Positions 28,601 through 62,356 of a stretch of DNA of 64,000 bases are shown piece after piece (positions within the stretch are counted from its first letter, which is position 1; every line of letters starts with the position of its first letter). A program made the position numbers and the translations under genes. The notes beneath the pieces were generated by a model. It had not been told where the DNA came from. It saw only the letters and a list, made by a program, of their open reading frames with translations, and made no database searches. The stretch is from Balanoglossus misakiensis (lineage: Eukaryota; Animalia; Hemichordata), in NCBI GenBank assembly GCA_040954595.2, contig CM082589.2, forward strand, positions 2,483,175 through 2,547,174, written 5' to 3'.

Positions 28601-28911
28601 CTCTGCTTCTGTTTCTCACACATTTCCTCTGTCTGTCTCTTTCATATTTTAACCGACCGAAATAGCAGACGACAAAGCCCACACATTTGAAATGACCCTT
28701 CAGAACAAGCTGATACCAGCTTAATGACCATGCGTAAGGCATACAATATAGCATGATATTTAAACAAATAGATTTGCACGTTACTGTATTGTTTGCGGGT
28801 AAATCTACATTTTCAGACTTCTAGATTTATAGATTGTTTAGCCTATCTAAAACGTGTTTCGATGTTTTTGTGTAAATCGCTGAGATATTTTGTGGCGGCG
28901 TCGACGAAGGC

Positions 28912-35566: not shown

Positions 35567-36118
35567 ACCAAATTGCTCCATTAAGTAACTATAACATTAC
35601 TCACACCAATAAAAAAACATGTTTTCGGAGCACAGTCATGCACTAAGCAGAAAAATCTTTCCAAGGATACACAAGGACAAAGTAGTCTTTTTCTCTCAAA
35701 GTTGACTTTCTGATAAAATATTCAATATACACTCTATCTCATTTTCTGAATCAAAGTTTTGATATCTGATTTGTTTTCTTTCCTGGTATCACAACTTGCG
35801 TTATACTTCTGTGGGATTCAGACACTGTCACTAATTTTAATTTTTTCACGTCGATTATTACCATTTTATTTTTATCGCCAGAATAGGGGCTAGTGCGATT
35901 TTATAAATTGGCAGCATAGTCTGACTTACCAATCTCTAAAATATGAGATGTGTTTGTTGTAAGTTATTGTGGAACATATTCACAATTCTACACCAGTTTC
36001 TATTCATATTGTCCTTCATATTCAGTGACCCACTATAAGTGTGCAAGTATAGGTGAAACTCTCACCATTTCTTTGTTGTCTTTGTCATTGTCGTGATGCA
36101 CAACGATTACTGCTGTGT

Positions 36119-39100
36119 TTATTGGGCAAACACTTTAATGCAGTGATTGGTTTGGTCAACTACAGCCACTCTGCATGGGACATCATTGGTCAGTGTGATA
36201 CCATGTGGCCACCCAAGTCCATCCTCATCACTGTCAATGCGAGATATGAATCTGCCTTTGCTGTCGAACTTCACCACGCGTTTGTTTCCTTTGTCACAGA
36301 CATACACATTTCCGTCTTTATCTGTCACTATTCCCGATGGCCAATTCAGGCTGACATCTGCGCTGATGTTGCGAAATGAGTATAAAAACTCACAGTCTGC
36401 ATTGAACACCTGAACTCGGTAATTGTTCATATCTGATACAAATGCTTCTCCTCGACTGTTGATATCCACATATGAAGGTCCGAAGAATTCTCCCTCTTTA
36501 GTGCCATACTTTCCAAAGGATTTGATGTGCTGACCTTGCTGTGTGTATTTCCTGATACAGTGACTACCTTCCTTGTCTGTGGCATCACCCTTTCCATCCC
36601 AGTCTGTGACATACACACTGCCATCTAGAGGACTGATACCAATTCCATCGGCATGTTTCAGTTCAGGTTGTCCAAAGTGCCTGAGTACATGTCCATCCTC
36701 ATCGCTTACAACTACTTGATTGTTGCCCTTATCTGTCATGAAGTATTCGTCATCAGCTGATACTGACACATCGTTTGGTTGAAATGGTTTCTCAAACTGT
36801 GTGAACGTTAAACTTGATTTGTAATTTCCATCTCTGTCGGCTATGTGTACCCTGTTGTTACCTTTATCAGCTGTAACAAAGTCGCCGCGTTTATTAGTAG
36901 TTATCCCTAATGGCCTTCTAAGCTGACCTTTGCCTATTATCTTCACCAAACCCTTGACAGAAATTACAAATGGTGATCCTGGTATCGGCTGATCACCAAG
37001 GGTTATGGTGACTTCATGTCTACCACCAACATCTGCATGAATTCTCAGACTGTGTGTACCATCTCTGTTGTCAACCACTCCAACGTTTTCTTGTGACCCA
37101 TCTTCTTTGCAGATCTTTGCTGTGATTGCTTTGTGTGGTATGACTGGTTTCCCTCTTCTGTATTCAATTCTGACAATGACGTCAGCAGACTCACCCCTGA
37201 CGAGTCTTTTGGGAATATCCTCTACTCTACACTGTGATGCACTGATATCGAGTTCCAGGAATCCCAACAGTCCATGCTGCAGAGGGTCTTCAGAAGGGTT
37301 GAATCTAACTATTTCCGTTTTTATGAATTGATTCATTTGATGAACAAATTCATGAATGTGAAGCAGAGTTTGTTTCTTTGATGACATTAGGTGAGCAGAA
37401 CTCCCATCATTCACCAGTGCTTCCATGTAATCGCATGCCTTGGAAATACTTCCATGTTTTTCTTCCCAATCATCCACTTCAGTTTCGATGGTGTGTCTGA
37501 TCATCTTGTATTCATCTTTCATCTCTTCAACCAGTCTGAACTCTTCCCTCTTCACCATTTTTATTATCTTCTTTGCTTTATTTCTCACTTTCTCCTCTTC
37601 CTCTTGACGATGTACTTCTAGGTCATCTTTGATACCCTCACCTCCAGTGTCACGTGACTTGACGGCCTGTTCATTTCTTCTCAACTTCGTCACCATCTCT
37701 CTCAGTTGTTTTCTGTAATCATCAGCGGCAACTTGTATCTGTCTGTGGACATGGTCAGGAATAGGATGTGCAGTGATACATTCAGGACAGATGCATACTT
37801 GACAACTATCACAAAACAGATGTACTTCATTCTGTGTGTGAAAGCTGCAGTACACTTGACCTTGTTGTGATTGCTGACTTGATACTTCTTTCAAGTATTT
37901 GTCAAGTTTGACGTCACTCTGACCTTTGACAGCTTTTGTGTCTTCATGGACAGTTATACAGGAAGAACAAAACTTGGCACTGCACTCTCTGCATCTATGT
38001 AGCGATTCAGTTTCTTTGCAACCTTCACATTGACCTATTTCTAAATCTTCGGTTTTCTCTGTTTCTTTTGCAAAACTCGCCTTCAAAGAATAAGTTGTGA
38101 AAAATATATATTATTAAACAATTTAAGTGAGTGGTATTCCTGATTAAAAATATTCATGACACTTTTTGGTATCATTGTCGAAGGCTTATACTTATGAAAA
38201 ATGATCTCGAGAATCAAAGTATAATAAACACGTGACAAAGCAGTATATTATATGATGTACGTTGTTAAAACAGTTTACTTGAACATACATGTATAGTGAT
38301 TTCAACCCGATGATGTTCACGTAATGTACACCAAACTTTATATTCCACTGGAAATGATTACCTGGGTATTAAATGTTTACTTACTGTTGAGAGCGCACCT
38401 CGTTTTGTTCTCTCACGAACTGCAATTTTTTCAGCTAGATCTTTTTCAACCTGCAGTCGTTTGATTTCGGCTTGCTGAATTGATTCTGTCTGCTTCAGTT
38501 CAGCAATCTGTGCAGCGTTAAAGTTAGCTTGCTTCTTGAGTTTTTCTAGCTGATCTTTGACTTCGTCTGTGTCTATTTCTAAGTCCTCAGTTTTGTGTGC
38601 TTCCTTTGCAATACTTGCCTATAAAGAAAAGATTGTGATATTTGTATTATTAAACAATTTAAAAGTACTGATGCCAATAAAATGTCTCTCTTTTGTGGCA
38701 ACACGCTTGAAGATAATTAGTCAAGTAAAAAAACACGACAAATAGTTGTATTTGATAGTAAAATTTGCAATGCATAAATGACAAAATACGGTTAGTGTCA
38801 TTTCAGTAGTTTTTGTTTTGTGTATGAACTAAAATACACAATGAAAAAGGGGCCACATGGCTTAAATTTAGTCAGTAAAGAAATTAATTTTTTGCCAATG
38901 GTTTTTCTATTGGCGAACACATTCAACAAAACACATTCAAGAAAGTTTATCTCCTAATTGAGCACGGTGACTATATTATTTTTTTGACCAGTGAATTTAA
39001 TTTCATTTGGAAGAACTATGAGTAAAACTTCATGAAAATGACAAAATCAGAAGCAATCAGACGATAAATATGTCTTAAAAAGCTTAAAAAGTGTGTACCT

Positions 39101-41732
39101 ATATCTTAGCTTGGCGCCAAGTTTTACTTTTAAATCCATTACTAGTTTACATACCGTCAGTCGATTGATTTCTTCTTCACATTCTGCCTTTGTAATTTGA
39201 AGATTCTTAATCACATTTTGGTCTGCAGCATGCTTCAATGCCACGAGCTTCACTACAGCTTTACTGTAATTTAGGGCCACCTACAAAATATACATAATAC
39301 ATGCATCCTTTTATCAGACTTTGCTCATGTCAAGAATATAAGACTTGCAACATGTTCGGATATAAATCGCTTGATTCTGTTGAGCGATAAATTTCTTCCA
39401 CTCCATGGCGACACATCAGAGTCGAAATCGGTTGAACGGATGTAGGATGTAGGTCTACATTAAGAATGTCATTGTATGTATCGGTAAACTAAATTTTGGT
39501 AAGTTGAGCATCAAAGTCTAATTGATAAGTCTTTATAGACAGCTACATTACTACGGTTGCATTCGGACTGGAGTCCATATTATCATTAGTAAATAGTACT
39601 AGTCACAACCTAGGCGACTAAGGTCAACCTTATGACCCTGACAACCCATGAATGTTGATAACATATCGTTTGGTCAAAGGTGATTATTGATATTCTGAAA
39701 CTGACCCCACCTGAGTGATATGGGTCATGGATTCCCGAGTGGCCGAAAATATACTTTATAGAATAAACTTATAAGGGCATGGGAATCGCGTCAGTTGACT
39801 ACGTGCACTTACCAAAGACGTCGACACAAGTTTCATTTTCATATTTGCTGCATATTTCTGGTGCTCTGTCTTGAGTTCTGCTGCATATTTGGAAGCTGTC
39901 TCCTTCTCTGCTTTGAGTTCTTTGATTCTGTGCTGTGATGCCTGGAGAAGAGACCTTCTGCCGAATTCTGATATTTCATTTAAAGTCGGCCAGACTGTTG
40001 ACATCAAGTTCAGTACATCGATACAAGGAAATCTCAGTGTGATGGACTGCAATCTTCTGTTTCTTGCGTTCTCTGTGTGTAAACAAAATATTTAAATATC
40101 GGGATGCACATATACCACAGCTACTATCACATTATACTCAGGGTACAGCAACAAGAAAATATAGCAAAATTAAATGGTGATATGGGAAATTATAAGCTAT
40201 ATTCGGGCAAAATTATTACTCGAATACGTGTGATGCCGCCAACTGCATAAAGGTATACATTTCGTGATAAGCTGTTTTGATTACAGGCATACAACATCTC
40301 ATTTTATGTAACGTCGATAAAATGCGTTTTAATTGATTACCTTTGAAATATTGTATTCCTATGTCCAACTGTAACTGGTCAACTTGAACAGCTATGTAGA
40401 ATTCAACATTGGATGCTTTGTCTGCAATTAGTGCTTTGATTCTCGGTGATATCAGGATGTCACTCAATTCTTGCTCAACATCGCCATTTCTAAGTCCTTT
40501 TCTGAAGCACTGGATACCATATATCTCAAAAGCTCGAAGTGCTAGGATAACAGATGATATCTTTATCCCCATCAGCTCTATGCGATACTGTTTAAGGGCT
40601 TTATACATCGCCTTGGACTTGTCAGGACATTCTCCTTTCTTGATTTCAGCGATTTCGTATTTGTATATCTCCTTTGCACTCTGGAATAATTCTAATTGTA
40701 TCCATTGCTCTAATTGATCGCCGCGTTTTGCCAGATCTATGCTGACATCAAAATCTGAAATTGTAATGTTTTTGATGAGTTTCAATATACATGTATACAG
40801 AGTGAACTTTTAAAGTATGGACTAAAATCTAATTAATTATCTATCAAAAGTCTCATGTTACTCAGTCTGGCTGTAAAATTCAATGACGCATTACTGATCA
40901 AATACCGACTGATTGCTAGATAAAAACACACAGAGAATAAGGATGCGTTTACTGCTATTCGGGGATGAAGGAATGTCAATTACATTGTAACGGCTTACTA
41001 ATTTTTGACCTCTCAATGCCCCAAATAATACAGAAGGTACTCACCAACGTAGGGCTGCATTTCTGATCCTGGCAGGTCAGTGACACTTGATCGCCTTCTT
41101 CTTTGCCCTTAAGTAAAATAAAATGTAAAAATGCATTGATAAAACTTACAAAGTATCGAAAACAGAGTTACTTGCCAATTTCTCCCGCTGATTTTCAAAA
41201 CCGTTCCCCAAGTTTAAGTACAAGTACCTGACCAGTCCATAAATAAATGCATCACCAAATACCCCACAGGCAGAGTAGAGGACAAGGTGTTATCCTTCTG
41301 TAGTAAAATCATTATTTTTTTAAACGGTAATAAAAGGGAAAGTTATTCACTTTTAAAATAGCTTGTATCTGTCCGTTTGAAGGAATCTGTAGCTGACGCC
41401 ATAATGTGATTGTTATAATGAGGTTCAGTATCCGTAAAAGACTCACCTAATGCGTTCGATTGAAAAGTTTCCACTTTCTTCTTTAGCTCTGGGAGTTTTA
41501 AAAGTCCCATCAGTTCAACCAATACCTCCACGTTCTCTTCGGACACATGACCACTTTCTTCCAATTTCTCAAAAACGTCCATAGCAGTTTCGGTTTTCTC
41601 AACTTCGGTTTTGGTCAGTTGGTTCCCTCTGATTAGCGACTTCATCAGCTTTACATTTTCCTTGCTTAGTTCTTGGTGTAAAGTTAGTAAGAGAATCCTG
41701 AGCGGCGGTATTTTGGTTGACCTAGTCTCCAT
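36119..41732 (-). CDS. DED - TRADD-N-like - coiled coil - B-box x2 - coiled coil - filamin/Ig - NHL repeat protein (RING-less TRIM2/3-like chimera), copy 1, ~1114 aa
   Basis: Exons 41447-41732, 41045-41107, 40341-40754, 39813-40072, 39155-39280, 38385-38618 and 36119-38080. All GT-AG with compatible phases; total 3345 nt. Exon 1 has a DED-type pattern (LRILLLTLHQELSKENVKLMKSLI...AMDVFEKLEESGHVSEENVEVLVELM). B-box2 is CSFH...LFCDSCQVCICPECITAHPIPDHVH. Filamin motif DNRDGTH...GDQPIPGSPF. Six NHL blades. Confidence 0.85.
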
Positions 41733-43888
41733 GCTTATAAAATGGCGTCAACCAACCATAACCATACTCATCTAATCACAATTTTTGTGCATTTTTGCTG
41801 CACCTGAAATAAAATTATACGCCATTTTGGTCAATAAGGACTGTTGAACTTTACAACAGAACAGGGCGGAGCATTAACACGTAAACATAGTCAATGATTT
41901 ATTGCATAGGTCTGGGACTAATTGGAGAAATGAAATAACAACATGTTCTTGTAAATATATAACGATGCAGATGGGGGGGGGGGGGGGGTGATGTTAGTCT
42001 AATGTAACTTCGTCGCCGCGAATGTGAAGATAGAAGGCCCGCAACATTACAAACTACAGTGTTCCGTATCAACCATAAAAATTTGATTGGTATCAAAATC
42101 ACTTATGTCCTGAACCCACAATATGAATGTTCAGAAAAATCTGTCTATAAATCATTGCTAACTGCCAATATTTTAAAGTCATATATCCAAACTTATATTG
42201 AAATCTATGTATCAGGCGGCTAGTATAGTCCTTGTCAACATGACAAAGACTATACTGTACAGCCATAGGCATGAGATACAAAACCAATTAAATCAACATC
42301 CACGATCTACATTACTTGTTTGTCTGATTCTAAATATACACCAGGTCGAAGTGTAGATTTAGCTTATATCCGCCGACAAACGTTTCTGTACGTTTATCAA
42401 CTTGTGGCGTACTGGGCAGGTCGCCAGCTTTGGCTCCAGAAGTCGATCGATTGGTGGGTCTCTCCTTATGTCTAAGGTAAAGTCAATAAATGTTAGCAGA
42501 CACTAGTACGCGTTGTTTTAGAACTTTATCAGTGAGACATGTCCTGACACAACAATGCATAGCTGAACTGCCAGTCTGCTGTTTGGCAACAGTGGAACTT
42601 GTATTAGACTAGCGGAGTAGGTTAAAATGGGCCACAATTTGAAACGGGGAGAGGTGTGGCGCAGAATTGTCTGTGTTCACACACACCTGTACGCAGAGCT
42701 ATAAGTAATGTGGTAGTAGCTTTGGCTTGTAAGTAGATGAGGAGTGTTTATTTTGTTTGGCAAATGAACTCAACTTCGAGGTTGGCGCCATTTTTAACGT
42801 TGGAAATAACTTTCGTCTATTCGTCTAATTACTGGCACAGGTCGCAGCACCCGAGCCTGCGCAGATTTACGGCACGCCGAAGCCTTGACACTCGGGAAAG
42901 ATTTTCTACCTTTGCTCTAATATCTGGGGTAGTTCGTCCTGTCATTGTTGTGTAGATTAGGTAAAGGTAACTATATTAAAATGTTGTGTGTTTAGATAAA
43001 AAGTGAAAACAAATAAACTTCTCCAAGTTAAAAGGGCGCGTTTACATCTTCGAAGTTTGTTGGCACATTTCTTCATAGTGTAAACATAGTGAATTATCAT
43101 GAATATGGGGACTGGGCAGTGGTCGGGGAGTCGATGCGTTCTCAAAGCGCCACCAATATAATGTCTATTCGAAAGTATGCGGTATGCAGTAGAGTATACG
43201 GTGAAAATCTAATAATGTGGTCAGAAACCGCACGACACTTTATCAGTGAGACATGTCCTGACACAAAAATGCATAGCTGAACTGCCAGTCCGCCGTTTGG
43301 CAACAGTGTAGAAAATAGTTAGAAAAATCTATCGGTGAGCATATCAAACAGTCGATATTACAAGATCATCTTGTCCTCGAACTTGAAAAGTCTCCAAGCA
43401 TGAATCTGTATGCAAATTTAACAAACTCCCGAAAAGATTATCATTCTTTCGCACAAACAGGAATTTTGTGTAACACGGTCAGCATCAGTACAGTACCACG
43501 TTACTCGAATTAGGGTCACAACATCCACAGGGGATGGGCGTTTTATGTGAACTATAAACTTGATTGAAATAGCTGACTAGCTGACACGAAAGTAACATAA
43601 ATGCCACCATATTATAAAAACACAGGAATTATAATCTATCAAGTTCAAATCTCTGTCAGGCATGAGACGTTTCCCAGTTTGTGATTTACAGGAAGTGAAT
43701 AACTCAGTCTTCAGTTTGATTGTTCACTCATGAGTTATTGTGGAACATTTGCACAATTTGACTCCAGTTTTTATGCCTATTGTCCTTCATATTCAGTGAC
43801 CACTATTTGTGTGCAAGTATAGGTGAAACCCTCACCATTTCTTTTTTGTCTTTGTCATTTTCGTGATGCACAACGTTTACAGAAGTGT

Positions 43889-46800
43889 TTATTGGGCAAA
43901 CACTTTAATGCAGTCATTGATGCAGTCAACTACAGCCACTCTGCATGGGACATCATTGGTCAGTGTGATACCATGTGGCCACTCAAGTCCATCCTCATCA
44001 CTGTCAATGCGAGATATGAATCTGCCTCTGCTGTCGAACTTCACCACGCGTTTGTTTCCTCTGTCACAGACATACACATATCCGTCTTCATCTGTCACCA
44101 CTCCCCTAGGGAATTTCAGGCTGACATCTGCGCTGATGTTGCGTAATGAGTACAAAAACTCACAATCTGCATTGAACACCTGAACACGGTTATTGTTTAT
44201 ATCTGATACAAATGCTTCTCCTCGACTGTTGATATCCACATATACAGGTCCGAAGAATTCTCCCTCTTCAGTGCCATGTTTTCCAAAGGATTTGATGTGC
44301 TGACCTTGCTGTGTGTATTTCCTGACACAGTAACTACCTTCCTTGTCTGTGTCATCACCCTTTCCATCATAGTCTGTGACATACACACTGCCATCTAGAG
44401 GACTGATACCAATTCCTTGGGCATATTTCAGTTCAGGTTTTCCGAAGTGTCTGAGTACTTGTCCATCCTCATCGCTTACAACTACTTGACTGTTGCCCCG
44501 ATCAGTCATGAAGTATTCATCATCAGCTGATACTGACACATCCTTTGGTTGAAAGGGCTTCTCAAACTGTGTGAATGTTAAACTTGATTTGTAATTTCCA
44601 TCTCTGTCGGCTATGTGTAGCCTATTGTTATCTCTATCAGCTGTAACAAAGTCGCCGTGTTTATTAGTAGTTATCCCTAATGGTCTGTCAAGCTGACCTT
44701 TGCCTATTATCTTCACCAAGCCCTTGACAGAAATTACAAATGGTGATCCTGGTATCGGCTGATCACCAAGGGTTATGGCGACTTCATGTCTACCACCGAC
44801 ATCTGCGTGAATTCTCACACTGTGTGTACCATCTCTGTTGTCAACCACTCCAACGTCTACTTGTGACCCATCTTCTTTACAGAACTTTGCTGTGATTGCT
44901 TTGTATGGAATGACTGGTTTTCCTCTTCTGTCTTCGATTCTGACAATGACGTCAGCAGACTCACCCCGGACGAGTCTTTTGGGAATATCCTCTACTCTAC
45001 ACTGGGATGCACTGATATCGAGTGTCAGAAATCCCAGCATTCCATGCTGCAGAGGGTCAGCAGAAGGATGGAATTTGATTAACTCGGATTTTATGAACTG
45101 ATTCACTTTATGAACAAATTCTTGAATGTGAAGCAGAGTTTGTTTCTTTGACGACATTAGGTGAGCAGAACTCCCATCATTCACCAGTGCGTCAATATAA
45201 TCGCATGCCTTGGAAATATTTCCATGTTTTTCTTCCCAATCATCTACTTCAGTTTCGATGGTGTGTCTGATCATCTTGTATCCAAGTTTCATCTCTTCAA
45301 CCAGTCTGAACTCTTCCCTCTTCACCATTTTTAGTATCTTCTTTGCTTTATTTCTCACTTTCTCCTCTTCCTCTTGACGATGTACTTCCAGGTCATCTTT
45401 GATACCCTCACCTCCAGTGTCACGTGACATGACGGCCTGTTCAGTTCCTCTCAACTTCACCACCATCTCTCTCAGTTGTTTTCTGTAATCATCAGCGGCA
45501 ACTTGTATCTGTCTGTGGACATGGTCAGGAATAGGATGTGCAGTGATACACTCAGGACAGATGCATACTTGACAGCTATCACAAAACAGATGTACTTCAT
45601 TCTGTGTGTGAAAGCTGCAGTACACTTGACTTTGTTGTGATTTCTGACTTGATATTTCTTTCAAGTATTTGTCAAGTGTGACGTCACTCTGACCTTTGAC
45701 TGCTTCTGTGTCCTCATGGACAGTTATACAGGAAGAACAAAACTTGGCACTGCACTCTCTGCATCTATGTAGCGATTCAGTTTCTTTGCAACCTTCACAT
45801 TGACCTATTTCTAAATCTTCGGTTTTCTCTGTTTCTTTTGCAAAACTCGCCTTTAAAGAAAAAGTTGTGAAAAATATATATTATTAAACAATTTAAGGGA
45901 CTGGTTTTCCTGATTAAAAATATTCTGACACTTTTTGGTATCATTGTCGAAGGCTTAAATTTATGAAAAAACGATCTCGAGAATCAAAGTATAATAAACA
46001 CGTGACAAAAGCAGTATATTATATGCTGTACGTTATTAAAACAGTTTACTTGAACATACATGTATAGTGATTTCAACCCGATGATGTTCACGTAATGTAC
46101 ACCAAACTTTATATTCCATTGGAAATGATTATCTGGGTATTAAATGTTTACTTACTGTTGAGGGCGCACCTCGTTTTGTTCTCTCACGAACTGCAATTTT
46201 TTCAGCTAGCTCTTTTTCAATCTGCAGTCGTTTGATTTCGGCTTGCTGAATTGATTCTGTCTGCTTCAGTTCAGCAATCTGTGCAGTGTTAATGTTGGCT
46301 TGCTTCTTGAGTTTTTCTAGCTGATCTTTGATTTCGTCTGTGTCTATTTCTAAGTCCTCAGTTTTGTGTGCTTCCTTTGCAATACTTGCCTATAAAGAAA
46401 ATATTGTGATATTTGTATTATTAAACAATTTAAAAGTATTGATGCCAATAAAATGTCTCTCTTTTGTGGCAACACGCTTGAAGATAATTAGTCAAGTAAA
46501 AAAAACACGACAAATAGTTGCATTTGATAGTAAAATTTGCAATGCATAAATGACAAAATACGGTTAGTGTCATTTCAGTAGTTTTTGTTTTGTGTATGAA
46601 CTAAAATACGCAATGAAACAGGGGTCACATAGCTTAAATTTAGTCAGTAAAGAAATGAAGTTTTCACCAATGGTTTTTCTATTGGCGAACACATTCAACA
46701 AAGTTTATCTCCTAATTGAGCACGGTGACTATATTATTTTTTTGACCAGTGAATTTAATTTCATTTGGAAGAACTATGACTAAAACTTCATGAAAATGAC

Positions 46801-49489
46801 AAAATCAGAAGCAATCAGACGATAAATATGTCTTAAAAAGCTTAAAAAGTGTGCACCTATACCTTAGCTTGGCGCCATGTTTTACTTTTAAATCCGTTAC
46901 TATTTTACATACCGTCAGTCGATTGATTTCTTCTTCACATTCTGCCTTTGTGATTCGAAGATCCTTAATCACATTTTGGTCTGCAGCATGCTTCAATGCC
47001 ACGAGTTTCACCACAGCTTTACTGTAATTTAGGGCCACCTACAAAATATACATAATACATGCACCCTTTTATCAGACTTTGCTCATGTCAAGAATATAAG
47101 ACTTGCAACAGGTTCGGATATAAATCGCTTGATTCTGTTGAGCGATAAATTTCTTCCACTCCATGGCGACACATCAGAGTCGAAATCGGTTGAACGGATG
47201 TAGGCCTTGGTCTACATTAAGAATGTCATTGTATGTATCGGTAAACTACATTTTTGTAAGTTGAGCGTCAACGTCTAATTCTTAAGTCTTTATAGACAGG
47301 TACATTACTACGATTGCATTCGGACTGGAATCCATATTATCATTAGTAAATAGTACTAGTCACAACCTAGGCGACTAAGGTCAACCTTATGACCCTGACA
47401 ACCCATGAATGTTGATAACATATCGTTGGGTCAAAGGTGATTATTGATATTCTGAAACTGACCCCACTTGAGTGATATGGGTCATGGATTCCCGAGTGGC
47501 CGAAAATATACTTTATAGAATAAACTTATAAAGGCATGGGAATCGCGTCAGTTGACTACGTGCACTTACCAAAGACGTCGACACAAGTTTCATTTTCATA
47601 TTTGCTGCATATTTCTGGTGCTCTGTCTTGAGTTCTGCTGCATATTTGGAAGATGTCTCCTTCTCTGTTTTGAGTTCCTTGATTCTGTGTTGTGATGCCT
47701 GGAGAAGAGACCTTCTGCCGAATTCTGATATTTCATTTAAAGTCGGCCAGACTGTTGACATCAAGTTCAGTACATCGATACAAGGAAATCTCAGTGTGAT
47801 GGACTGCAATCTTCTGTTTCTTGCGTTCTCTGTGTGTAAACAAAATATTTAAATATCGGGATGCACATATACCACAGCTACTATCACATTATACTCAGGG
47901 TACAGCAACAAGAAAATATAGCAAAATTAAATGGTGATATGGGAAATTATAAGCTATATTCGGGCAAAATTATTACTCGAATACGTGTGATGCCGCCAAC
48001 TGCATAAAGGTATACATTTCGTGATAAGCTGTTTTGATTACAGGCATACAACATCTCATTTTATGTAACGTCGATAAAATGCGTTTTAATTGATTACCTT
48101 TGAAATATTGTATTCCTATGTCCAACTGTAACTGGTCAACTTGAACAGCTATGTAGAATTCAACATTGGATGCTTTGTCTGCAATTAGTGCTTTGATTCT
48201 CGGTGATATCAGGATGTCACTCAATTCTTGCTCAACATCGCCATTTCTAAGTCCTTTTCTGAAGCACTGGATACCATATATCTCAAAAGCTCGAAGTGCT
48301 AGGATAACAGATGATATCTTTATCCCCATCAGCTCTATGCGATACTGTTTAAGGGCTTTATACATCGCCTTGGACTTGTCAGGACATTCTCCTTTCTTGA
48401 TTTCAGCGATTTCGTATTTGTATATCTCCTTTGCACTCTGGAATAATTCTAATTGTATCCATTGCTCTAATTGATCGCCGCGTTTTGCCAGATCTATGCT
48501 GACATCAAAATCTGAAATTGTAATGTTTTTGATGAGTTTCAATATACATGTATACAGAGTGAACTTTTAAAGTATGGACTAAAATCTAATTAATTATCTA
48601 TCAAAAGTCTCATGTTACTCAGTCTGGCTGTAAAATTCAATGACGCATTACTGATCAAATACCGACTGATTGCTAGATAAAAACACACAGAGAATAAGGA
48701 TGCGTTTACTGCTATTCGGGGATGAAGGAATGTCAATTACATTGTAACGGCTTACTAATTTTTGACCTCTCAATGCCCCAAATAATACAGAAGGTACTCA
48801 CCAACGTAGGGCTGCATTTCTGATCCTGGCAGGTCAGTGACACTTGATCGCCTTCTTCTTTGCCCTTAAGTAAAATAAAATGTAAAAATGCATTGATAAA
48901 ACTTACAAAGTATCGAAAACAGAGTTACTTGCCAATTTCTCCCGCTGATTTTCAAAACCGTTCCCCAAGTTTAAGTACAAGTACCTGACCAGTCCATAAA
49001 TAAATGCATCACCAAATACCCCACAGGCAGAGTAGAGGACAAGGTGTTATCCTTCTGTAGTAAAATCATTATTTTTTTAAACGGTAATAAAAGGGAAAGT
49101 TATTCACTTTTAAAATAGCTTGTATCTGTCCGTTTGAAGGAATCTGTAGCTGACGCCATAATGTGATTGTTATAATGAGGTTCAGTATCCGTAAAAGACT
49201 CACCTAATGCGTTCGATTGAAAAGTTTCCACTTTCTTCTTTAGCTCTGGGAGTTTTAAAAGTCCCATAAGATCAACCAATACCTCCACGTTCTCTTCGGA
49301 CACATGACCACTTTCTTCCAATTTCTCAAAAACGTCCATAGCAGTTTCGGTTTTCTCAACTTCGGTTTTGGTCAGTTGGTTCCCTCTGATTAGCGACTTC
49401 ATCAGCTTTACATTTTCCTTGCTTAGTTCTTGGTGTAAAGTTAGTAAGAGAATCCTGAGCGGCGGTATTTTGGTTGACCTAGTCTCCAT
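43889..49489 (-). CDS. DED - TRADD-N-like - TRIM-NHL chimera, copy 2
   Basis: Exons 49204-49489, 48802-48864, 48098-48511, 47570-47829, 46913-47038, 46156-46389 and 43889-45850. Exon sizes are identical to copy 1 and the frame is open upstream of the ORF-track start. Confidence 0.85.
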
Positions 49490-52339
49490 GCTTATAAAAT
49501 GGCGTCAACCAACCATAACCATACTCATCTAATCACAATTTTTGTGCATTTTTGCTGCACCTGAAATAAAATTATACGCCATTTTGGTCGATAAGGACTG
49601 TTGAACTTTACAACAGAACAGGGCGGGAGCATTAACACGTAAACATAGTCAATGATTTATCGCAAAGGTCTGGGACTAATTGGAGAAATGAAATAACAAC
49701 ACGTTCTTGTAAATATATAACGATGCAGATGGGGGTGGGGGGGTGATGTTAGTCTAATGTAACTTCGTCGCCGCGAATTTGAAGATAGAAGGCCCGCAAC
49801 ATTACAAACTAGTGTTCCGAATAAACCATTAAATTTTGATTGGTATCAAAATCACTTAAGTCCCGAATCCAGAATACATGAATGCTTCAGAAAAATCTGT
49901 CTATAAATCATTGCTAACTGCCAATATTTTAAAGTCATATATCCAAACTTATATTGGAATCTATGTATCAGACGGCTAGTATAGTCCTTGTCAACATGAC
50001 AAAGACTATACTGTACAGCCATAGGCATATCTACATTACTTGTTTGTCTGATTCTAAATGTACACCAGGTCGAAGTGTAGATTTAGTAACGAGCTTATTC
50101 GCCGACAAAGTTTATCAACTTGTGGCGTACTGGGCAGGTCGCCAGCTTTGGCTCCAGAAGTCGATAAATTGGTGGGTCTCTCCTTATGTCTAAGGTATTA
50201 TCAATAAATGTTAGCAGACACTAGTACGCGTTGCTTTATAACTTTATCAGTGAGACATGTCCTGACACAAAAATGCATAGCTGAACTGCCAGTCTGCCGG
50301 TTGGCAACAGTGGAACTTGTATTAGACTAGGGGAGTAGGTTAAAATGGGCCACAATTTGAAACGGGGAGAGGTGTGGCGCAGAATTGTCTGTGTTCACAC
50401 AGACCTGTACGCAGAGCTATAAGCAATGTAATAGTTGCTTTGGCTTGTAAGTAGATGAGGAGTGTTCATTTTGTTTGGCAAATGAACTCCAACTTCGAGG
50501 TTGGCGCCATTTTTAACGTTGGAAATAACTTTCGTCTATTCATCTAATTACTGGCACAGGTCGCAGCGCCCGAGCCTGCAGTATGCGCAGATTTACGGCA
50601 CGCCGAAGCCTTGACACTCGGGAAAGATTTTCTACCTTTGCTCTAATATCTGGGGTAGTTCGTCCTGTCATTGTTGTGTAGATTAGGTAAAGGTAACTAT
50701 ATTAAAATGTTGTGTGTTTAGATAAAAAGTGAAAATAAATAAACTCAGAATCTCCAAGTTAAAGGGGCGCGTGTAAGTCTTCGAAGTTTGTTGGAACACT
50801 TCTTCATAGTAACAGAGTGAATATGGGGACCGGACCGGGCAGTGGTCGGGGAGTCGATGCGTTCTCAAAGCGCCACCAATGTCTATTCCAAAGTATGCGG
50901 TATGCAGTAGAGTATGCGTTGAAAATCTAATAATGTGGTCAGAAACCGCACGACACTGAAATGTCCAATTACTCCACGGGAAGTCACTCTTGACCCAGTA
51001 GTGGAAAAACCGACCGTGTGTGCAACTTAAGAATTTCACAGCTGAAATCAAGTTCACCAACGTCGAGTCATTCATAGAAGGATACGAGAGAGATGAGACT
51101 GGAATTTCACTTCGCTTTTGTCACCGTTATTCTGTTGTTTCTCGTCCTTTTAGGTGAGTACAATAGAATTTCGTTGGGTATATTAGGAGAGTAAAATATT
51201 TGGCAAGAAGCATAAATTTCAAGCAATATTTCATAACTTTTTCCGCGCACATTTACAGGGTGGGTGTAGTCCCGTCTGCGGATATGCGTCCCCATACCAC
51301 ACAGTCGAGTGTCAAGTCAAACTATACAATGCGTTATTACTATTTATCACATTTCCAATTTACTTTGAAATGACATTTACATGTACGTTGACAGGGTCTC
51401 TCAATGCTGATGATGTGTTTATAAATGGAAAAGTCGCCCATGTGAAGTTCAGGCGACCATCTCCCTTTAAAGCGACCAGTCTGTCGTATCAGATCAAAAG
51501 TCACCAAGACTGCGCGTTTATTCCTTAGTAAACGCTCTGAGAAGTTACTCTTTTGATACATTCTGTTTTTTTGCGTTTGGTACATCAATCGGCACCAGTG
51601 CTAAAGAAAAACTGCATTAACACAAGCAAGCTTCTGAGTCATAACCTTCACACTGACTTCAATTAACTCACAAGTCAACATATGTTTTTGATGTCCTTAC
51701 ACTTCAGAAAGCACTGCCTTGGCCATTTGACTAAAAACAAAGTACTTAGAAAAATCTATCGGTGAGCATATCAAACAGTGATTACAAAATCATCTTGTCC
51801 TCGAACTTGAAAAGTCTCCAAGCATGAATTTAAATAAAACAAGAATATGTATGCAAATTTAACAAACTCCCGAAAAGATAATCATTCTTTCGCACAAACA
51901 GGAATTTTGTGTAACGCGGTCAGCATCAGTACAGTACCACGTTACTCAAATTAGGGTCACCACATCCACGGGAGATGGGCGTTTTATGTGAACTATAAAC
52001 TTGATTGAAATAGCTGACGACGGAGTAATTTCTGTCATGCAAGACGCACGAAAGTAACATAAATGCAACCACATTATAAAAAACAAAGGAATTATAATCT
52101 ATACCCCAAGTTCAAATCGCTGTCAGGCATGAAACGTTTCCCAGTTTGTGATTTATAGGAAGTGAATAACTCAGTCTTCAGTTTCATTGTTCCCTCGTGA
52201 GTTATTGTGGAACATTTTCACAATTTGACACCAGTTTCTATGCCTATTGTCCTTCATATTCATGACCCACTATTTGTGAAACTCTCACAATGTCTTTGAT
52301 TTTTGTCACTTTCAGGATACACAACTTTTGCTGCTGTGT

Positions 52340-55300
52340 TTATTGGGCAAACACTTTAATGCAGTCATTTTCATGGTCAACTACAGCCACTCTGCATGCC
52401 ACATCATTGGTCAGTGTGATACCAGCTGGCCACTCAAGTCCATCCTCATCACTGTCAATGCGAGATATGAATCTGCCTCTGCTGTCTAACTTCACCACGC
52501 GTTTGTTTCCTTTGTCACAGACATACACATATCCGTCTTTATCTGCCACTATTCCCCTTGGCCATTTCAGGCTGTCATCTGCGCTGATGTTTCCAAATGA
52601 GTATAAAAACTCACAGTCTGCACTGTAAACCTGAACACGGTAATTGTTCATATCTGATACAAATGCTTCTCCTCGACTGTTGATATCCACATATCCAGGT
52701 CCTTTGAATTCTCCCTCTTCAGTGCCATGCTTTCCAAAGGATTTGATGTGCTGACCTTGCTGTGTGTATTTCCTGACACAGTGACTACCTTCCTTGTCTG
52801 TGTCACCAGCCTTTCCATCCCAGTCTGTGACATACACACTGCCATCTAGAGGACTGATAGCAATTCCTTGGGCATATTTCAGTTCAGGTTTTCCGAAGTG
52901 CCTGAGTACTTGTCCATCCTCATCGCTTACAACTACTTGATTGTTGCCGTCATCTGTCATGAAGTATTCGTCATCAGCTGATACTGCCACTTTGTTTGGT
53001 AGAAAGGGCTTCTCAAACTGTGTGAACGTTAAACTTGATTTGTCATTTCCATCTCTGTCGGCTATGTATACCCTATTGTTACCCCAGTCAGCTGTAACAA
53101 AGTCGCCGTGTTTATTAGTAGTTATCCCTACTGGCCTTCTAAGCTGACCTTTGCCTATTACCTTCACCAAACCCTTGACAGAAATTACAAATGGTGATCC
53201 TGGTATCGGCTGATCACCAAGTGTTATGTTGACTTCATGTCTACCACCGACATCTGCGTGAATTCTCAGACTGTGTGTACCATCTCTGTTGTCAATAACT
53301 CCAATGTCTTTTTGTGACCCATCTTCTTTGCAGATCTTTGCTGTGATTGCTTTGTGTGGTGTGACTGGTTTCCCTCTTCTATCTTCGACTCTGACAATGA
53401 CGTCAGCAGACTCACCCCTGACGAGTCTTGTGGGAATATCCTCTACTCTACACTGGGATGCACTGATATCTAATGTCAGTAATCCCAGCATTCCATGCTG
53501 CAGAGGGTCAGCAGAAGGATGGAATTTGATTAACTCGGATTTTATGAACTGATTCACTTTATGAACAAATTCATGAATGTGAAGCAGAGTTTGTTTCTTT
53601 GATGACATTAGGTGAGCAGAACTCCCATCAATCACCAGTGCTTCCATGTAATCGCATGCCTTGGAAATATTTCCATGTTTTTCTTCCCAATCATCCACTT
53701 CAGTTTCGATGGTGTGTCTGATCATCTTGTATTCATCTTTCATCTCTTCAACCAGTCTGAACTCTTCCCTCTTCACCATTTTTATTATCTTCTTTGCTTT
53801 ATTTCTCACTTTCTCCTCTTCCTCTCGATGATGTACTTCCAGGTCATCTTTGATATCCTCACCTCCAGTGTCACGTGACATGACGGCCTTTTCAGTTCCT
53901 CTCAACTTCGCCACCATCTCTCTCAGTTGTTTTCTGTAATCATCAGCGACATCGTGTATCTGTCTGTGGACATGGTCAGGAATAGGATGTGCAGTGATAC
54001 ACTCAGGACAGATGCATAGTTGACAGCTATCACAAAACAGATTTACTTCATTCTGTGTGTGAACGCTGCAGTATGCTTGACTTTGTTGTGATTGCTGACT
54101 TGATATTTCTTTCAAATATTTGTCGAGTGTGACGTCACTCTGACCTTTGACTGCTTCAGTGTCCTCGTGGACAGTTATACAGGAAGAACAAAACTTGGCA
54201 TTGCACTCTCTGCATCCATGTAGCGATTCAGTTTCTTTGCAACCTTCACATTGACCTATTTCTAAATCTTCGGTTTTCTCTGTTTCTTTTGCAAAACTCG
54301 CCTTTAAAGAAAAAGTTGTGAAAAATATATATTATTAAACAATTTAAGGGAGTGGTATTCCTGATTAAAAATATTCATGACACTTTTTGGTATCATTGTC
54401 GAAGGATTAAACTTATGAAAAACGATCTCGAGAATCAAAGTATAATAAACACGTGACAAAAGCAGTATATTATATGCTGTATGTTATTAAAACAGTTTAC
54501 TTGAACATACATGTATAGTGATTTCAACCCGATGATGTTCACGTAATGTACACCAAACTTTATATTCCACTGGAAATGGTTATCTGGGTATTAAATGTTT
54601 ACTTACTGTTGAGGGCGCACCTTGTTTTGTTCTCTCACGAACTGCAATTTTTTCAGCTAGCTCTTTTTCAACCTGCAGTCGTTTGATCTCGGCTTGCTGC
54701 ATTGATTCTGTCAGCTTCAGATCAGCAATCTCTGCAGTGTAAATGTTGGCTTGCTTCTTGAGTTTCTCTAGCTGATCTTTGACTTCGTCTGTGTCTATGT
54801 CTAAGTCCTCAGTTTTGTGTGCTTCCTGTGCAATAATTGCCTATAAAGAAAAGATTGTGATATTTGTATTATTAAACAATTTAAAAGTATTCATGCCAAT
54901 AAAATGTTTCTCTTTTGTGGCAACACGCTTGAAAATTATTAAAGTAAATAATGTTTTTTCTATCGGTGAACACATTCACCAAAGTTTATCTCCTAATTGA
55001 GCACGGTGACCATATGATTTTTTGGACCAGTGAATTTAATTTCATGGGAAGAACTATGAGTATAACTTCATAAAAAGACAAAATAAGAAGCTTTCTGGCA
55101 TTTCTCAATTTAATCCCATTGGCTTACATATGACCGTCCCGTGTTTCGATTTTTCAATCAGACGATAAATATGTCTTTAAAAGCTTAAAAGTGTGCACCT
55201 ATACCTTAGCTTGGTGCCAAGTTTTACTTTTAAATCCGTGGCTATTTTACATACCGTCAGTCGATTGATTTCTTCTTCACATTCTGCCTTTGTGATTCGA

Positions 55301-58054
55301 AGATCCTTAATCACATTTTGGTCTGCAGCATGCTTCAATGCCACGAGTTTCACTACAGCTTTACTGTAATTTAGAGCCACCTACAAAATATACATAATAC
55401 ATGCACCCTTTTATCAGACATTGCTCATGTCAAGAATCAAGACTTGCAACAGGTTCGGATATTAATCGCTTGATTCTGTTGAGCGAAAAATTTCTTCCAC
55501 TCCATGGCGACACATCAGAGTCGAAATCGGTTGAACGGATGTAGGCCATGGTCTACATTAAGAATATGTCATTGTATGTATCGGTAAACTACATTTTGGT
55601 AAGTTGAGCGTCAAAGTGTAATTGATAAGTCTTTATAGACAGGTACATTACTACGATGGCATTCGGACTGGAGTCCATATTGTCATTAGTGAATAGTACT
55701 AGTCACAACCTAGGCGACTAAGGTCAACCTTATGACCCTGACAACCCATGAATGTTGATAACATATCGTTGGGTCAAAGGTGACTGTTGATATTCTGAAA
55801 CTGACTCACCTGCGTGTAGGGATCGTGGAATACCGAGTGGTCGAAAATATGCATTATAGAATTAAACATTGGTGAGGGGGGGGGGGGGGGGGGGGTCGTG
55901 AATCGTGTCAATTTACTTCGTGCACTTACCAGAGACATCGACACAAGTTTCATTTTCATATTTGCTGCATATTTGGAAGATGTCTCGTTGTCTGTTTTGA
56001 GTTCTTTGATTCTGTTCTGGTGCTCTGCTTTGAGTTCTTTGATTCTGTGTTGTGATGCCTGGAGAAGAGACCTTCTGCCGAATTCTGATATTTCATTTAT
56101 AGTCGGCCAGATTGTTGACATCAAGTTCAGTACATCGATACAAGGAAATCTCAGTGTGATGGACTGCAATCTTCTGTTTCTTGCGTTCTCTGTGTACACA
56201 CATAGCGATGTATTAGTCATAATAATGTTAAGCAACACGTTTGGCTCACGTGAAGTTTGGGCCTCTGTGGTTATATTTAATTCATTACAAGGCTGTCATC
56301 TTTAACGAGGCATATCTTACCATTTCTGTCAAGCATACATGAATAATATTGCTAGATGAGTTATGTATTAAACAGAACAGTGTCACTGACATGTTTGAAT
56401 GTTACAATAGTATTCAGCACTTCAGGAAAACACACCTTGCACGATCTTGGACAAACTCGCTATAATTTACAAGTCGATTCACTTGACGCTTAGTTTTGTC
56501 TGTTTGCGCTATATATATGTTTGACTCTAAGGAAAATAATGCAAAAGACGAATATCCTATTTTCAATTGCCCTTTACGACGGTTTAAGGCATCAAAAATA
56601 TCAGCAGAAAAGTTTAGGTCTATGGTATTTGTTTCCATGCACTTACCTTCAAAGTATTCCATGCCCCTTTCTAATTCAGCGTGGTCAACCAGTGCAGCTA
56701 TTTCTAACAGCCCCTCTCTTTTCACAAGCATCTTCATACTATTGGAAATAAGTATGTCGGAAAGCAGGCGCTCCAGATCACCACAGTCCAGCCCTTTTTT
56801 GAAACACTGTATGTTACTCCGACTGAAGGTTCGCAAAATCAGAATAACGGACGACATCTGGATACGTATTAACTTGGCTTGGTAACGGTCAAAGGCCTTG
56901 TCGAGTAATTTCGATTTGTCTGGATTATTGCCATTCTTAATTTCTTCCACCTCAACTTCAAATATCTTCTTCGCGGCTTCATATAAATGGGCTTCTATCT
57001 GTTGTTTTTGTTGGATTTGAAGTTCTAGCCGGAAATCTGTAAAAAAATACACAAAGGCGATTAAATTGTATAATCTGTTACTGGTATCACACTTCAAAAT
57101 ATTTGTTGAAAAAGTCTACTTTCTTCAACCAATAAGCAATCGGTATAAATAATGATACGTTCTAAAATATCGGATCCGGTCACGCTATCTCGGCTATTAA
57201 AGTTGATTTTCTAATGACTCAGCAAAAGTATACCATTGCCAGTGATGGAGGAAATGAATAGCATTCGTTTCGCACTGGCGGAAGCTGACAATGCATGGGG
57301 TCGTAAAGGGTTCAGGCAGTCAAATAGTGAAGTACGCTTTTCACTTTAATGGAACTGTCTGGGCTTCGCGAACCGGGCCAGCACACACAACAACATCGTC
57401 TATATGCACTCAGAACCACTTGATCATTAAAGGCGTTGGTCGTACGTGAATTAACGCCACCAAATGCACTTGCAAATTTAACCACAGTTACCTTGGAACT
57501 TACCCCAATAGGGACTAGCCTTGTCCATTTCTTGTCCAGGACGATCAGCATCACTGTAACGCCGTCGTTTCTCTACTAAAGAAAACAGAACATGCATTGT
57601 GATTAATTAAACATGTATTGAAAATGCATGAAAATATCCGTTTTCATTTTAAAAATAACGGCTGGAATTGTTCTTAAAAACGGAAAAAAAATATTCAGGA
57701 CAAACAACATGTACCCTGTGCTGGCCTCCAGTCAAAGGGTTATAAATAGAACTGTCACTCACCTACAGCTACCGCACCAGATTGAAAATTTTCAACTTTT
57801 TCCTTTAGCCGTGGACGCTTCAAATGATCCATTAATTCGATGACTAGTCCAAGATTAGTTGCAGATATATATCCACGTGTTTCCAAATGTACGAATAGGC
57901 TCATTGCAGTTTTCGTCTTCTCTGCGTCTTCTTCGCTTAACTGGCGACCGTAAAGTAGGAGTTTCATCGTAGATACTTCTTCGCCGCTAAGTTCGCTCTG
58001 TAATGCTAGAAAAAGTGACCTCAATGGGCAAACGTTGGTCACACTCACTTCCAT
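52340..58054 (-). CDS. DED - TRADD-N-like - TRIM-NHL chimera, copy 3, with divergent N-terminal exons
   Basis: Exons 57763-58054, 57504-57575, 56647-57036, 55930-56189, 55255-55380, 54607-54840 and 52340-54301. The DED exon reads MEVSVTNVCPLRSLFLALQSELSGEEVSTMKLLL...AMSLFVHLETRGYISATNLGLVIELMDHLKRPRLKEKV. Intron phases match copies 1 and 2. Confidence 0.83.
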
Positions 58055-60860: not shown

Positions 60861-62356
60861 ATGCTCATTACTAAGATCAAAGCACATCAGTACGGGAATA
60901 CATCTCACGTCAACGTGTTTAGGAATGAGAGTATCTTAACATCTATTTTGTGTTTTTCTGCTTTGTCTGCTTTCACAGGCGTCGCCGAAGGAAGCAATGG
61001 CGGTCTCTCAAATGATAACGGCAATGATCAATTAAGGCGTAAATTATTACAATACTACGATCGCAGAAAGTTACCTCATAAGCCACAGGTGGATATCACG
61101 GTGTCTATCCAGTTGGTCACAGCGGAAGTTGTAAGTGTTGTTTGTTTGATAATTTTTGTCGTTTGGGGGGGACACTAAAATATCACGTATTATACGAAAG
61201 GGAAGCGTTGGACCATTCACAATACAGCATCAACGTCGATGCATTTTGCTTCATTAAGACTTTTCAATTTCTTGTGAACATATTAACGTGTTCTATTTAA
61301 TTATCCATAAAAGTCATAATTATCATTATAATTTTGTTTGATTTCAGAACACGGAGACGAACATTCTGATTGCGGAGCATCGAAGGCTATACGTAAGTGT
61401 TGCTATTAAACCATCCACATCCCGTCCATCATCAATCGATTCATTTTCCGTCAACCAACCCACTGAGTCACTCACATATTCACTCACTCACTTGGTCGAT
61501 CGATCGATCGATCAGTCAGTCAAACTACAACCCGGGACGTTTTCTGACATTGTTACACTGACTCTTCTTATGGAATCGCATCATTCCAGCTAGCAAATGT
61601 TATTTTTTAACACAACAGAAATGGTATGACAACAGACTCGTCTGGGATACACCAAACAAGCGATCGAGTCAAGTGTCAATCTTGGCTGTCTCGCCGGAGT
61701 CTATCTGGAGTTTCCTGCGCTACGAACAACTTGTAAATGGGTTAGTTCATTTCTCATTACTCATCTGCTGAACATGGCGACGAAAAGAATTTCGCCTCAG
61801 CCATGTGAACGACCAAATTTCTTAATGCTATGAACCAATATCTGAATGAACGACTTCATAACAACTCATGCAGATATGTCTTTTACTCGACAGTACTTTA
61901 CGGAAACCAGTGAACGCAACACGTCACGAGGAATCACCCACAGCATTGGTGACGTCAGAGGGTCTGGTCGAGCTCGTGACACCTCGGGTCGTCACGGAGA
62001 CGCCCTGTTTGCAGCACGCCCTCTCAAACGACACTTACACATGCGAGATAACGCTCTCCAATTGGCGATACCCGTCAACCAAGCTGAGGCTACAGTTTCC
62101 CCCAAACAGGGTGCCCGTGGATTTGCACTCTTTCATGACGGAAGAGTGGGAAGTTGCGGAAGCCACGGGCAAGATCTTCGACAGAAAGAGCGACAGCAAG
62201 TTAACCGACACGGTGTCGTCGGTCACATTTGAAATCGTTCTCCAAGAAGCAGACGTGTCCCTGTCTCATCTTAAGAACACTGCGACCAACCTTTTGCCAA
62301 CGACTTACATGTTCATGCTGTGTGCAGGACATATTTTTCTTCTTACTACTATGTAG
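60861..62356 (+). CDS. Cys-loop (nicotinic-type) ligand-binding-domain-only protein, AChBP-like, with a single hydrophobic C-terminal tail; exons ?-61130, 61348-61392, 61619-61740, 61894-62356 (5' start uncertain)
   Basis: Signal-like SILTSILCFSALSAFTGVAEG, then helix DQLRRKLLQYYDRRKLP. A 45-nt exon typical of nAChR genes follows, then KWYDNRLVWD...PESIW, ALVTSEGLV, the Cys loop C-LQHALSNDTYT-C, loop B SNWRY, EEWEV and VTFEIVL. The stop comes after one hydrophobic segment. Confidence 0.72.
61497..61513. repeat. (GATC)n short palindromic microsatellite in an intron
   Basis: cgatcgatcgatcgatc. Confidence 0.6.

Follow-up and report, generated by a model that had tools for sequence, protein, structure and literature searches.

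Invertebrate proteins in which a death-fold domain and a TRADD-N domain precede a beta-propeller were catalogued by Kaur et al. 2021 (PMC8195603), and the parts of that article on which we draw list a coral protein (XP_022798487.1) with the order DED+DED+TRADDN-DEDD2+CC+Filamin+propeller, an oyster protein (XP_011421835.1) with Ig+DED+TRADDN-NCOA6+BBOX+propeller and the amphioxus combination Death+TRADDN-DEDD2+CC+propeller (DED, death effector domain; CC, coiled coil). The same parts also mention TRIM fusions and put forward a model in which recognition of invader molecules by the propeller trips a switch formed by TRADD-N. Here we describe three paralogous genes, g1 to g3, in a stretch of 64,000 nucleotides from the acorn worm Balanoglossus misakiensis (contig CM082589.2; the whole stretch is called the window), in which a predicted module of DED, TRADD-N and coiled coil stands at the place where a TRIM-NHL protein usually has its RING. 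Judged by sequence, this architecture is an independently derived version of the known class: with the proteins of Kaur et al. it shares a constant unit followed by a variable C-terminal propeller, which in that class is sometimes TRIM-derived, as well as lineage-specific expansion in a marine invertebrate and the proposed sensor-switch logic, but its NHL propeller is of enteropneust origin. Our best reading is that g1–g3 encode paralogous cytosolic sensors whose death-fold outputs would likely be interchangeable.

As a prediction, the sensor idea for the class is largely in print already. The initial annotation had taken the architecture to be uncharacterised, and this stands only in a narrow sense: the class is catalogued and its switch model proposed, but the exact string DED/TRADD-N/CC/B-box/B-box/CC/filamin/NHL is absent from 8 of 8 Filamin and 30 of 30 BBOX places among the listed entries of the Kaur table, and the 24 of its 35 hemichordata places that were covered hold no entry with a DED-to-NHL string. 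Literature searches, whose scope excluded subscription journals, found no paper on the DED/TRADD-N/TRIM-NHL family itself, and a look-up of terms gave no NHL or TRIM passage in the portions covered of PMC10210618 (main text and supplement) and PMC2575513. What is new here, as far as the sequences indicate, is (i) a fusion independent of that in amphioxus, (ii) diversification of the ligand face of the propeller and (iii) an alternative DED/TRADD-N cassette in g3.

The gene models are internally consistent. Each of the 18 introns has GT-AG borders, the phases run 1,1,1,0,0,0 in every gene, and the exons, joined by their coordinates (Table 1), give reading frames without internal stops and one predicted domain order throughout—DED, TRADD-N, coiled coil, B-boxes, coiled coil, filamin and six-blade NHL, with no RING—in agreement with the initial annotation, which had recognised three intact seven-exon genes splicing in frame. 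There is one minus-strand gene per tandem unit of ~7.6 to 8.5 kb. Neither blastn nor tblastn revealed a fourth copy within the window, and a candidate extra gene upstream of the array was dropped on this ground. Very probably, exons 1 to 7 belong together in one gene of DED-to-NHL architecture. Exon 6 ends without a stop and in phase with exon 7, AATAAA occurs in none of the 18 introns, and the first methionine of g1 exon 7 lies at residue 129, downstream of both B-boxes. In exons 1–3 of g3 the introns lie at the positions and in the phases found in g1 and g2 though the DNA can no longer be aligned, and the encoded protein is still 45 to 52% identical despite synonymous sites near saturation, which is the pattern expected of purifying selection on coding exons. 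Moreover, the Ptychodera flava RefSeq protein XP_070539273, third match of a search with exon 7, carries DED, B-box, filamin and NHL by Pfam and is collinear with the DED, TRADD-N and TRIM-NHL parts; its alignment with the N-terminal part covers the DED and everything up to and including exon 4 (E 2e-49 and 3e-58) and extends into exon 6, and two further P. flava models span the exon 6–7 junction. These models are gene predictions too, but were made independently in another genome.

Pfam was run on g1 exons 1 and 3–7, g3 exons 1, 3, 4 and 7, and g2 exon 7. The DED of exon 1 scores 51.7 bits in g1 and 55.8 bits in g3 against a gathering cut-off of 35.9; exon 1 of g2, itself outside the scan, differs from that of g1 by one residue, and the solved chains nearest to these domains are the DEDs of FADD and caspase-8. 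In exon 7 of all three genes, B-box, filamin and NHL lie above the Pfam cut-off, and the AlphaFold model of the NHL has 24 strands in six blades (predicted local distance difference test, pLDDT, 96.7), with TRIM2/3 as its best structural matches in Foldseek (template-modelling score, TM, 0.89). The coiled coil of exons 4–6 is probable from composition and sub-threshold Pfam matches. A RING was found neither by Pfam in the scanned pieces nor by a RING pattern upstream of exon 7 in any of the three genes. Both the DED and the RING loss proposed at first hold. Pfam likewise gave no NACHT/STAND NTPase or LRR in the g1–g3 pieces, and no death domain of classical TRADD, a clade described as vertebrate-only (PMC8195603). 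With TRIM-NHL proteins (TRIM2/3, TRIM71/LIN41, Brat), g1–g3 share the B-box, coiled coil, filamin and six-blade NHL; unlike them, they lack the RING, carry DED and TRADD-N in front and have a B-box1 without its last histidine (glutamine in g1 where a RING-bearing relative has histidine). The logic of effector, oligomeriser and sensor is shared with NLRs by analogy only, and g1–g3 are not members of that family. The acceptors of exons 6 and 7 resemble each other (Table 1), which was considered as a scar of the fusion and dropped: the P. flava relatives lack the duplicated residues, which points to a likely lineage-specific internal duplication.

By homology, exon 3 is a TRADD-N domain of the DEDD2 clade, an assignment that rests on listed Saccoglossus loci, a Ser-Ser pair, atlas neighbours and a profile match. 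Searched by phmmer against 1.84 billion representative proteins, exon 3 has three matches, namely a P. flava protein and the Saccoglossus loci LOC102805649 (E 1.4e-8) and XP_006811155.1/LOC102809883 (E 7.8e-7), which the table of Kaur et al. (PMC8195603) gives as DED+TRADDN-DEDD2+coiled-coil and TRADDN-DEDD2+coiled-coil, respectively. All five rows of the alignment (5 of 5) keep the Ser-Ser pair, which aligns with Gly-Cys of amphioxus P0076; the pair fits the TRADD-N motif of a tiny residue and a serine before a hydrophobic strand (PMC8195603), and would lie at the beta2–beta3 turn. Atlas neighbours of exon 3 are TRADD-like_N clusters (0.93, family share 14 to 46%), and profile comparison with P0076 falls on the weak TRADD-like_N region of that protein, at a probability of 31%. 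The domain also occurs as a single copy between the death-fold domain and the variable part, as in DEDD2-clade TRADD-N proteins. Exon 3 had no Pfam match at E<=1 and no match to PDB sequences, a word-indexed search found no longer protein with exon 3 among 371 candidates, and residues 160–325 of P. flava P0003 matched only themselves among 592 candidates. The TRADD-N-like domain of the initial annotation holds by homology, through the phmmer matches to loci listed by Kaur et al., with the atlas neighbours in agreement. Its presumed binding of TRAF2 was dropped as a default and is not to be assumed, because MATH/TRAF is not a universal partner of TRADD-N (PMC8195603).

The search with exon 7 returned 84 proteins of 359 to 1143 aa; enteropneusts account for every one of the top 62 (32 from P. 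flava, 11 from Glandiceps and 19 from Saccoglossus). Within that length range, a DED is absent from all the Glandiceps and Saccoglossus matches. A DED, CARD or RHIM is carried by 7 of the 84, five of them amphioxus proteins that group with amphioxus RING TRIMs. A tree of the NHL was built from 72 rows (17 matches were left out as partial or off-target; quick search, with support from the Shimodaira–Hasegawa-like approximate likelihood-ratio test, SH-aLRT, only). In it, g1–g3 share one clade with five P. flava proteins that lack a RING (SH-aLRT 98), next to RING-bearing TRIM-NHLs of P. flava (91); RING labels were taken from precomputed Pfam entries, which means that truncated models may account for some of the rows without a RING in other parts of the tree. 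A joint clade of three amphioxus DED-NHLs with the enteropneust DED-NHLs was rejected in a 23-row tree (approximately unbiased test, p-AU 3e-79). These data strongly support an origin of g1–g3 among enteropneust TRIM-NHLs, separate from the amphioxus look-alikes and with an independent fusion. The latter (P0074, P0077, P0071, P0076 and P0069) resemble g1–g3 in joining a death-fold or RHIM unit to a filamin-like/NHL body, with the weak TRADD-like_N in P0076, but their NHLs group with amphioxus RING TRIMs. P0069 has two RHIM matches ahead of a complete RING TRIM-NHL, and the RHIM-, CARD- and DED-bearing TRIM-NHLs of amphioxus are independent derivatives.

The closest relatives, the RING-less P. 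flava proteins, share with g1–g3 the collinear layout seen in XP_070539273 and a single NHL clade; they differ in having 58 to 68% identity over the exon-7 part, automatic names only and, in some models, no TRADD-N or no 5' end. In the atlas, P. flava P0003 falls into generic TRIM-NHL clusters only, under 0.9. P. flava P0021 has a DED joined directly to filamin-NHL, without TRADD-N, B-boxes or coiled coil, either as a real deletion variant or through a gene-model shortcut. The Saccoglossus loci LOC102805649 and LOC102809883 have the same TRADD-N subfamily as g1–g3 and the conserved segment after it, but no B-box, filamin or NHL. Their family is likely the donor of exons 1–4, and we infer that a LOC102805649-type DED+TRADD-N+CC gene was joined ahead of B-box1 of a TRIM-NHL before B. 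misakiensis and P. flava split. The N-terminal part of g1 aligns with Saccoglossus across DED and TRADD-N (E 2e-19); pairwise BLASTP of g3 exon 1 with Saccoglossus P0088 gave no DED alignment, which leaves the descent of the DED from the Saccoglossus gene less secure than that of TRADD-N.

The NHLs of g1–g3 are mutually 86 to 88% identical, and variable sites are more frequent in top loops (27 of 91) than in bottom loops (7 of 57; p=0.016). Using the RNA-contact residues named for LIN41 in PMC5908797, mapped through TRIM71 stretches, we defined five classes of position per blade, or 30 positions; 21 of these vary among g1–g3 compared with 32 of the 247 other NHL positions, and codons with at least two base differences number 12 of 30 and 3 of 247, respectively. 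At the contact positions, the proportion of nonsynonymous differences (pN) is 0.31 to 0.36 against a synonymous proportion (pS) of 0.075 to 0.097 in exon 7, an excess that persists when each codon is counted once (p at most 0.0023), although such p-values are optimistic, since the classes, while mapping to LIN41 contacts, were picked after the variable sites had been seen. A partition model with free multi-hit rates gives an omega of 4.55 at the 30 positions (likelihood-ratio test statistic, LRT, 19.65). In site models, the LRT of M2a against M1a is 32.6 in the NHL and 0.02 in the rest of exon 7, with a maximum of 6.8 in 26 null simulations, and all ten of the ten top-ranked selected sites fall among the 30 positions. 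With the rates of double and triple substitutions fixed from the rest of exon 7, the NHL statistic is 14.0. Mutation clusters by themselves give no reason to expect a bias toward one propeller face. At the level of sequence comparison, a concentration of amino-acid diversification on the face that binds ligand in LIN41 is thus strongly supported; in TRIM-NHL proteins that face is conserved.

Several points weigh against this. The site models were run with our own code on three sequences, among which gene conversion may distort them, and freeing the rates of double and triple substitutions lowers the NHL statistic to 3.35 (p=0.19). Top loops as defined by DSSP show by themselves no excess (pN 0.10 to 0.13 against a local pS of 0.11 to 0.15), and a ratio of nonsynonymous to synonymous rates (dN/dS) above 1 over the whole top loops was dropped, because pN only equals the local pS. 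Furthermore, top-face variability is also high among paralogues with a RING: amino-acid differences are 0.29 to 0.40 in top loops compared with 0.09 in bottom loops of Glandiceps P0008, P0011, P0015 and P0018–20, a clade of RING-bearing paralogues, and of Saccoglossus P0025, P0028, P0033, P0034, P0049 and P0054, a mostly RING-bearing clade, so that the bias does not single out the DED fusion. It was not seen in a four-member P. flava RING group. The Glandiceps and Saccoglossus differences suggest that ligand faces diversify throughout the wider expansion of TRIM-NHLs in enteropneusts. The sensor role first assigned to the NHL gains support from the diversification, though as a model it had been anticipated by Kaur et al. 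(PMC8195603).

The N-terminal module shows another pattern. In g3, an interval whose coding content is exactly exons 1–3 resembles g1 and g2 by blastn in one patch of 53 to 59 nt at 75% only, whereas both of its flanks are 89 to 93% identical. In g1 and g2, by contrast, 1,577 nt are identical, three introns included, which may reflect either recent gene conversion or assembly collapse; ~10% of the synonymous sites of exon 7 differ between the two genes. A divergent cassette in g3 and an identical module in g1 and g2, on NHLs that differ, suggest that the output module acts as a homogenised or exchanged unit while the propeller face diversifies. The alignments strongly support two DED/TRADD-N cassettes of very different sequence on sensor bodies that are almost identical, and the g3 cassette may have been obtained by exchange from a distant paralogue; alternatively, it could have diverged long ago while its flanks were converted, or stem from a fault in the assembly. 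The intergenic spacers hold three copies of a 72-nt element (43237-43308, 42523-42594 and 50241-50312), 96 to 97% identical.

A role of g1–g3 in immune recognition is likely. We lean, with less assurance, toward the whole chain from an invader-sensing NHL to an activating DED output. In this chain, the NHL face would bind a changing, invader-derived ligand in the cytosol, the B-box and coiled coil would dimerise and cluster the protein on a multivalent ligand, TRADD-N would keep it inactive until clustering, as in the switch model of Kaur et al., and clustered DEDs would recruit a FADD-like adaptor or a DED-caspase, with cell death or inflammation as the outcome of signalling. Since the paralogues do not carry the same residues at the contact positions, a protein or glycan of a pathogen is a likelier ligand than an RNA of fixed structure. 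The sensor-to-caspase interpretation of the initial annotation is thus retained in its gene structure, DED, TRADD-N-like domain and RING loss, and loses its novelty of architecture and its default binding of TRAF2; its nucleation of FADD/caspase-8 filaments is weakened as a prediction by the serine that g1 and g2 have at the FADD Phe25 position. Three further points count against the reading: the models of g1–g3 are predictions from genomic sequence, the AlphaFold model of exon 3, built from 5 sequences, is too low in confidence (pLDDT 51) to inform on the predicted RRM-like alpha/beta fold of TRADD-N, and the surface motifs of the DED are degenerate in g1 and g2.

In the main rival, an unlikely one in our view, g1–g3 are sensors or decoys whose NHL recognises an invader ligand, while a single, motif-degenerate DED caps or sequesters DED filaments in the manner of cFLIP, PEA-15 or DEDD and does not nucleate them. 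A hydrophobic patch at FADD Phe25 and the RxDL motif are important for DED interactions. At the Phe25 position g1 and g2 have serine, without the arginine and aspartate of RxDL, and g3 has leucine and, of RxDL, the arginine only; DEDD2, the namesake of the TRADD-N clade, is moreover described as a negative regulator with cFLIP (PMC8195603). On the other hand, the leucine and arginine of g3 have counterparts in P. flava P0003 and P0021, whose DEDs retain a hydrophobic residue at the Phe25 position and the arginine, and invertebrate DED interfaces need not follow human motifs. That g1–g3 are instead LIN41/Brat-type RNA-binding regulators, or viral-RNA sensors with an accessory death module, seems improbable. 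The diversifying positions do belong to the classes that contact RNA in LIN41 (PMC5908797), 6 to 8 of the 30 face positions are lysine or arginine, and some other TRADD-N proteins have RNA-binding domains (PMC8195603). However, an arginine precedes the blade proline in one of six g1 blades compared with four of six in the TRIM71 stretches, the conserved basic top-face contacts of LIN41/TRIM71 are not seen where 21 of 30 positions differ among paralogues (RNA binding of another kind being possible), and the best structural matches, TRIM2/3, have surfaces without the RNA-binding conservation of LIN41 and Brat (PMC5908797).

About as improbable is a role as partner of RING-bearing TRIM-NHL paralogues, in which heterodimers formed through B-box and coiled coil would add a death output or block the ligase and the NHL of g1–g3 would be secondary. 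Dozens of enteropneust relatives have a RING, B-box2 and coiled coil are intact, and RING-less and RING-bearing members lie on the same 48-Mb contig in P. flava, but the amino-acid excess falls on the NHL ligand face and not on the B-box/coiled coil/filamin part. Least probable of all is an artefact of gene models or assembly, that is, a DED/TRADD-N/CC gene beside a TRIM-NHL exon that lacks a RING and is not part of it, or a pair of alleles wrongly assembled into g1 and g2. Saccoglossus does have DED+TRADD-N+CC genes that stand alone, the g1/g2 identity is long and the P. flava models are themselves predictions; yet exon 6 runs into exon 7 in matching phase without a stop, no usable methionine precedes the B-boxes, collinear P. 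flava models span the junction, and the synonymous differences in exon 7 separate g1 from g2.

The locus offers a compact test case for the prediction of Kaur et al., drawn from domain lists, that invaders are recognised by propellers attached to a DED-TRADD-N unit: it combines three recent paralogues with two natural alternatives for the output cassette on bodies that hardly differ. With paralogue differences clustered on ~20 named residues of the binding face, searches for the ligand, exchanges of NHL domains and tests of the TRADD-N switch would be straightforward. The findings also suggest that the large TRIM-NHL expansions of marine invertebrates may be immune receptors rather than developmental RNA regulators. 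We speculate, tentatively and with considerable doubt, that the TRIM-NHL propellers of acorn worms form a diversifying, LRR-free repertoire of cytosolic receptors in which whole output cassettes (RING ligase or alternative DED/TRADD-N modules) are swapped by recombination onto one and the same sensor body, and that a sensor-to-caspase receptor class free of NTPases, parallel to NLRs, arose convergently in corals, oysters, amphioxus and acorn worms.

Table 1. Positions of the predicted genes, domains and repeated tracts in the window
Feature	Position	Strand	Details	Evidence
Gene g1	36119..41732	minus	7 exons: 41732-41447, 41107-41045, 40754-40341, 40072-39813, 39280-39155, 38618-38385, 38080-36119; 1114 aa	GT-AG introns, open frame
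Gene g2	43889..49489	minus	7 exons: 49489-49204, 48864-48802, 48511-48098, 47829-47570, 47038-46913, 46389-46156, 45850-43889; 1114 aa	GT-AG introns, open frame
Gene g3	52340..58054	minus	7 exons: 58054-57763, 57572-57504, 57036-56647, 56189-55930, 55380-55255, 54840-54607, 54301-52340; 1110 aa	GT-AG introns, open frame
Death effector domain, g1 exon 1	41447..41732	minus	g2 49204-49489; g3 57763-58054	Pfam PF01335 above cut-off
Short basic linker, g1 exon 2	41045..41107	minus		Sequence; similar basic stretch in P. flava P0003
TRADD-N domain, DEDD2 clade by homology, g1 exon 3	40341..40754	minus	g2 48098-48511; g3 56647-57036	phmmer, atlas, Ser-Ser pair
Conserved post-TRADD-N segment, then probable coiled coil, g1 exons 4-6	38385..40072	minus		Alignment with P. 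flava and Saccoglossus proteins
B-box1 and B-box2, g1	37730..38029	minus		B-box2, Pfam zf-B_box; B-box1, Cys pattern and alignment
TRIM coiled coil, g1	~37250-37729	minus		Precedes filamin
Filamin domain, g1	36953..37249	minus		Pfam PF00630
Six-blade NHL propeller with probably diversifying ligand face, g1	36122..36955	minus	g2 43892-44725; g3 52343-53176	AlphaFold, Foldseek, codon tests
Exon 6 acceptor and first codons	38573..38662	minus	~80% like exon 7 acceptor region (38035-38126)	blastn
Three tandem units	35959..59832		~35959-43731, 43733-52195, 52197-59832	blastn and tblastn
Divergent 5' cassette of g3	56196..58480	minus	Upstream DNA and exons 1-3	blastn against g1/g2
Tract identical between g1 and g2	39934..41510		1577 nt, end of exon 1 to exon 4	blastn

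The remainder of the window holds other genes. A multi-exon minus-strand gene at 1994-10938, which we take to be ATAD2-like from its sequence, has AAA domains on two exons by Pfam; its bromodomain-like exon (3545-3826) had no Pfam match at E<=0.001. Five carbohydrate-sulfotransferase-like open reading frames, on both strands, lie at 22672-31919, each with a Pfam Sulfotransfer_1 match (5/5), and exons of a neurotransmitter-gated ion channel subunit lie on the plus strand at 60831-62353, with Neur_chan_LBD on 61862-62353 (Pfam). At 14977-22130 there are three related glycosyltransferase-like genes, the first matching Pfam O-FucT and the other two sharing its motifs with no match at E<=0.001. On the 48.2-Mb P. 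flava contig (P0039, P0001, P0002 and P0087), which carries three RING-less relatives, one TRIM-NHL model includes an O-FucT match, which hints weakly that glycosyltransferase and TRIM-NHL genes are neighbours in P. flava as well.

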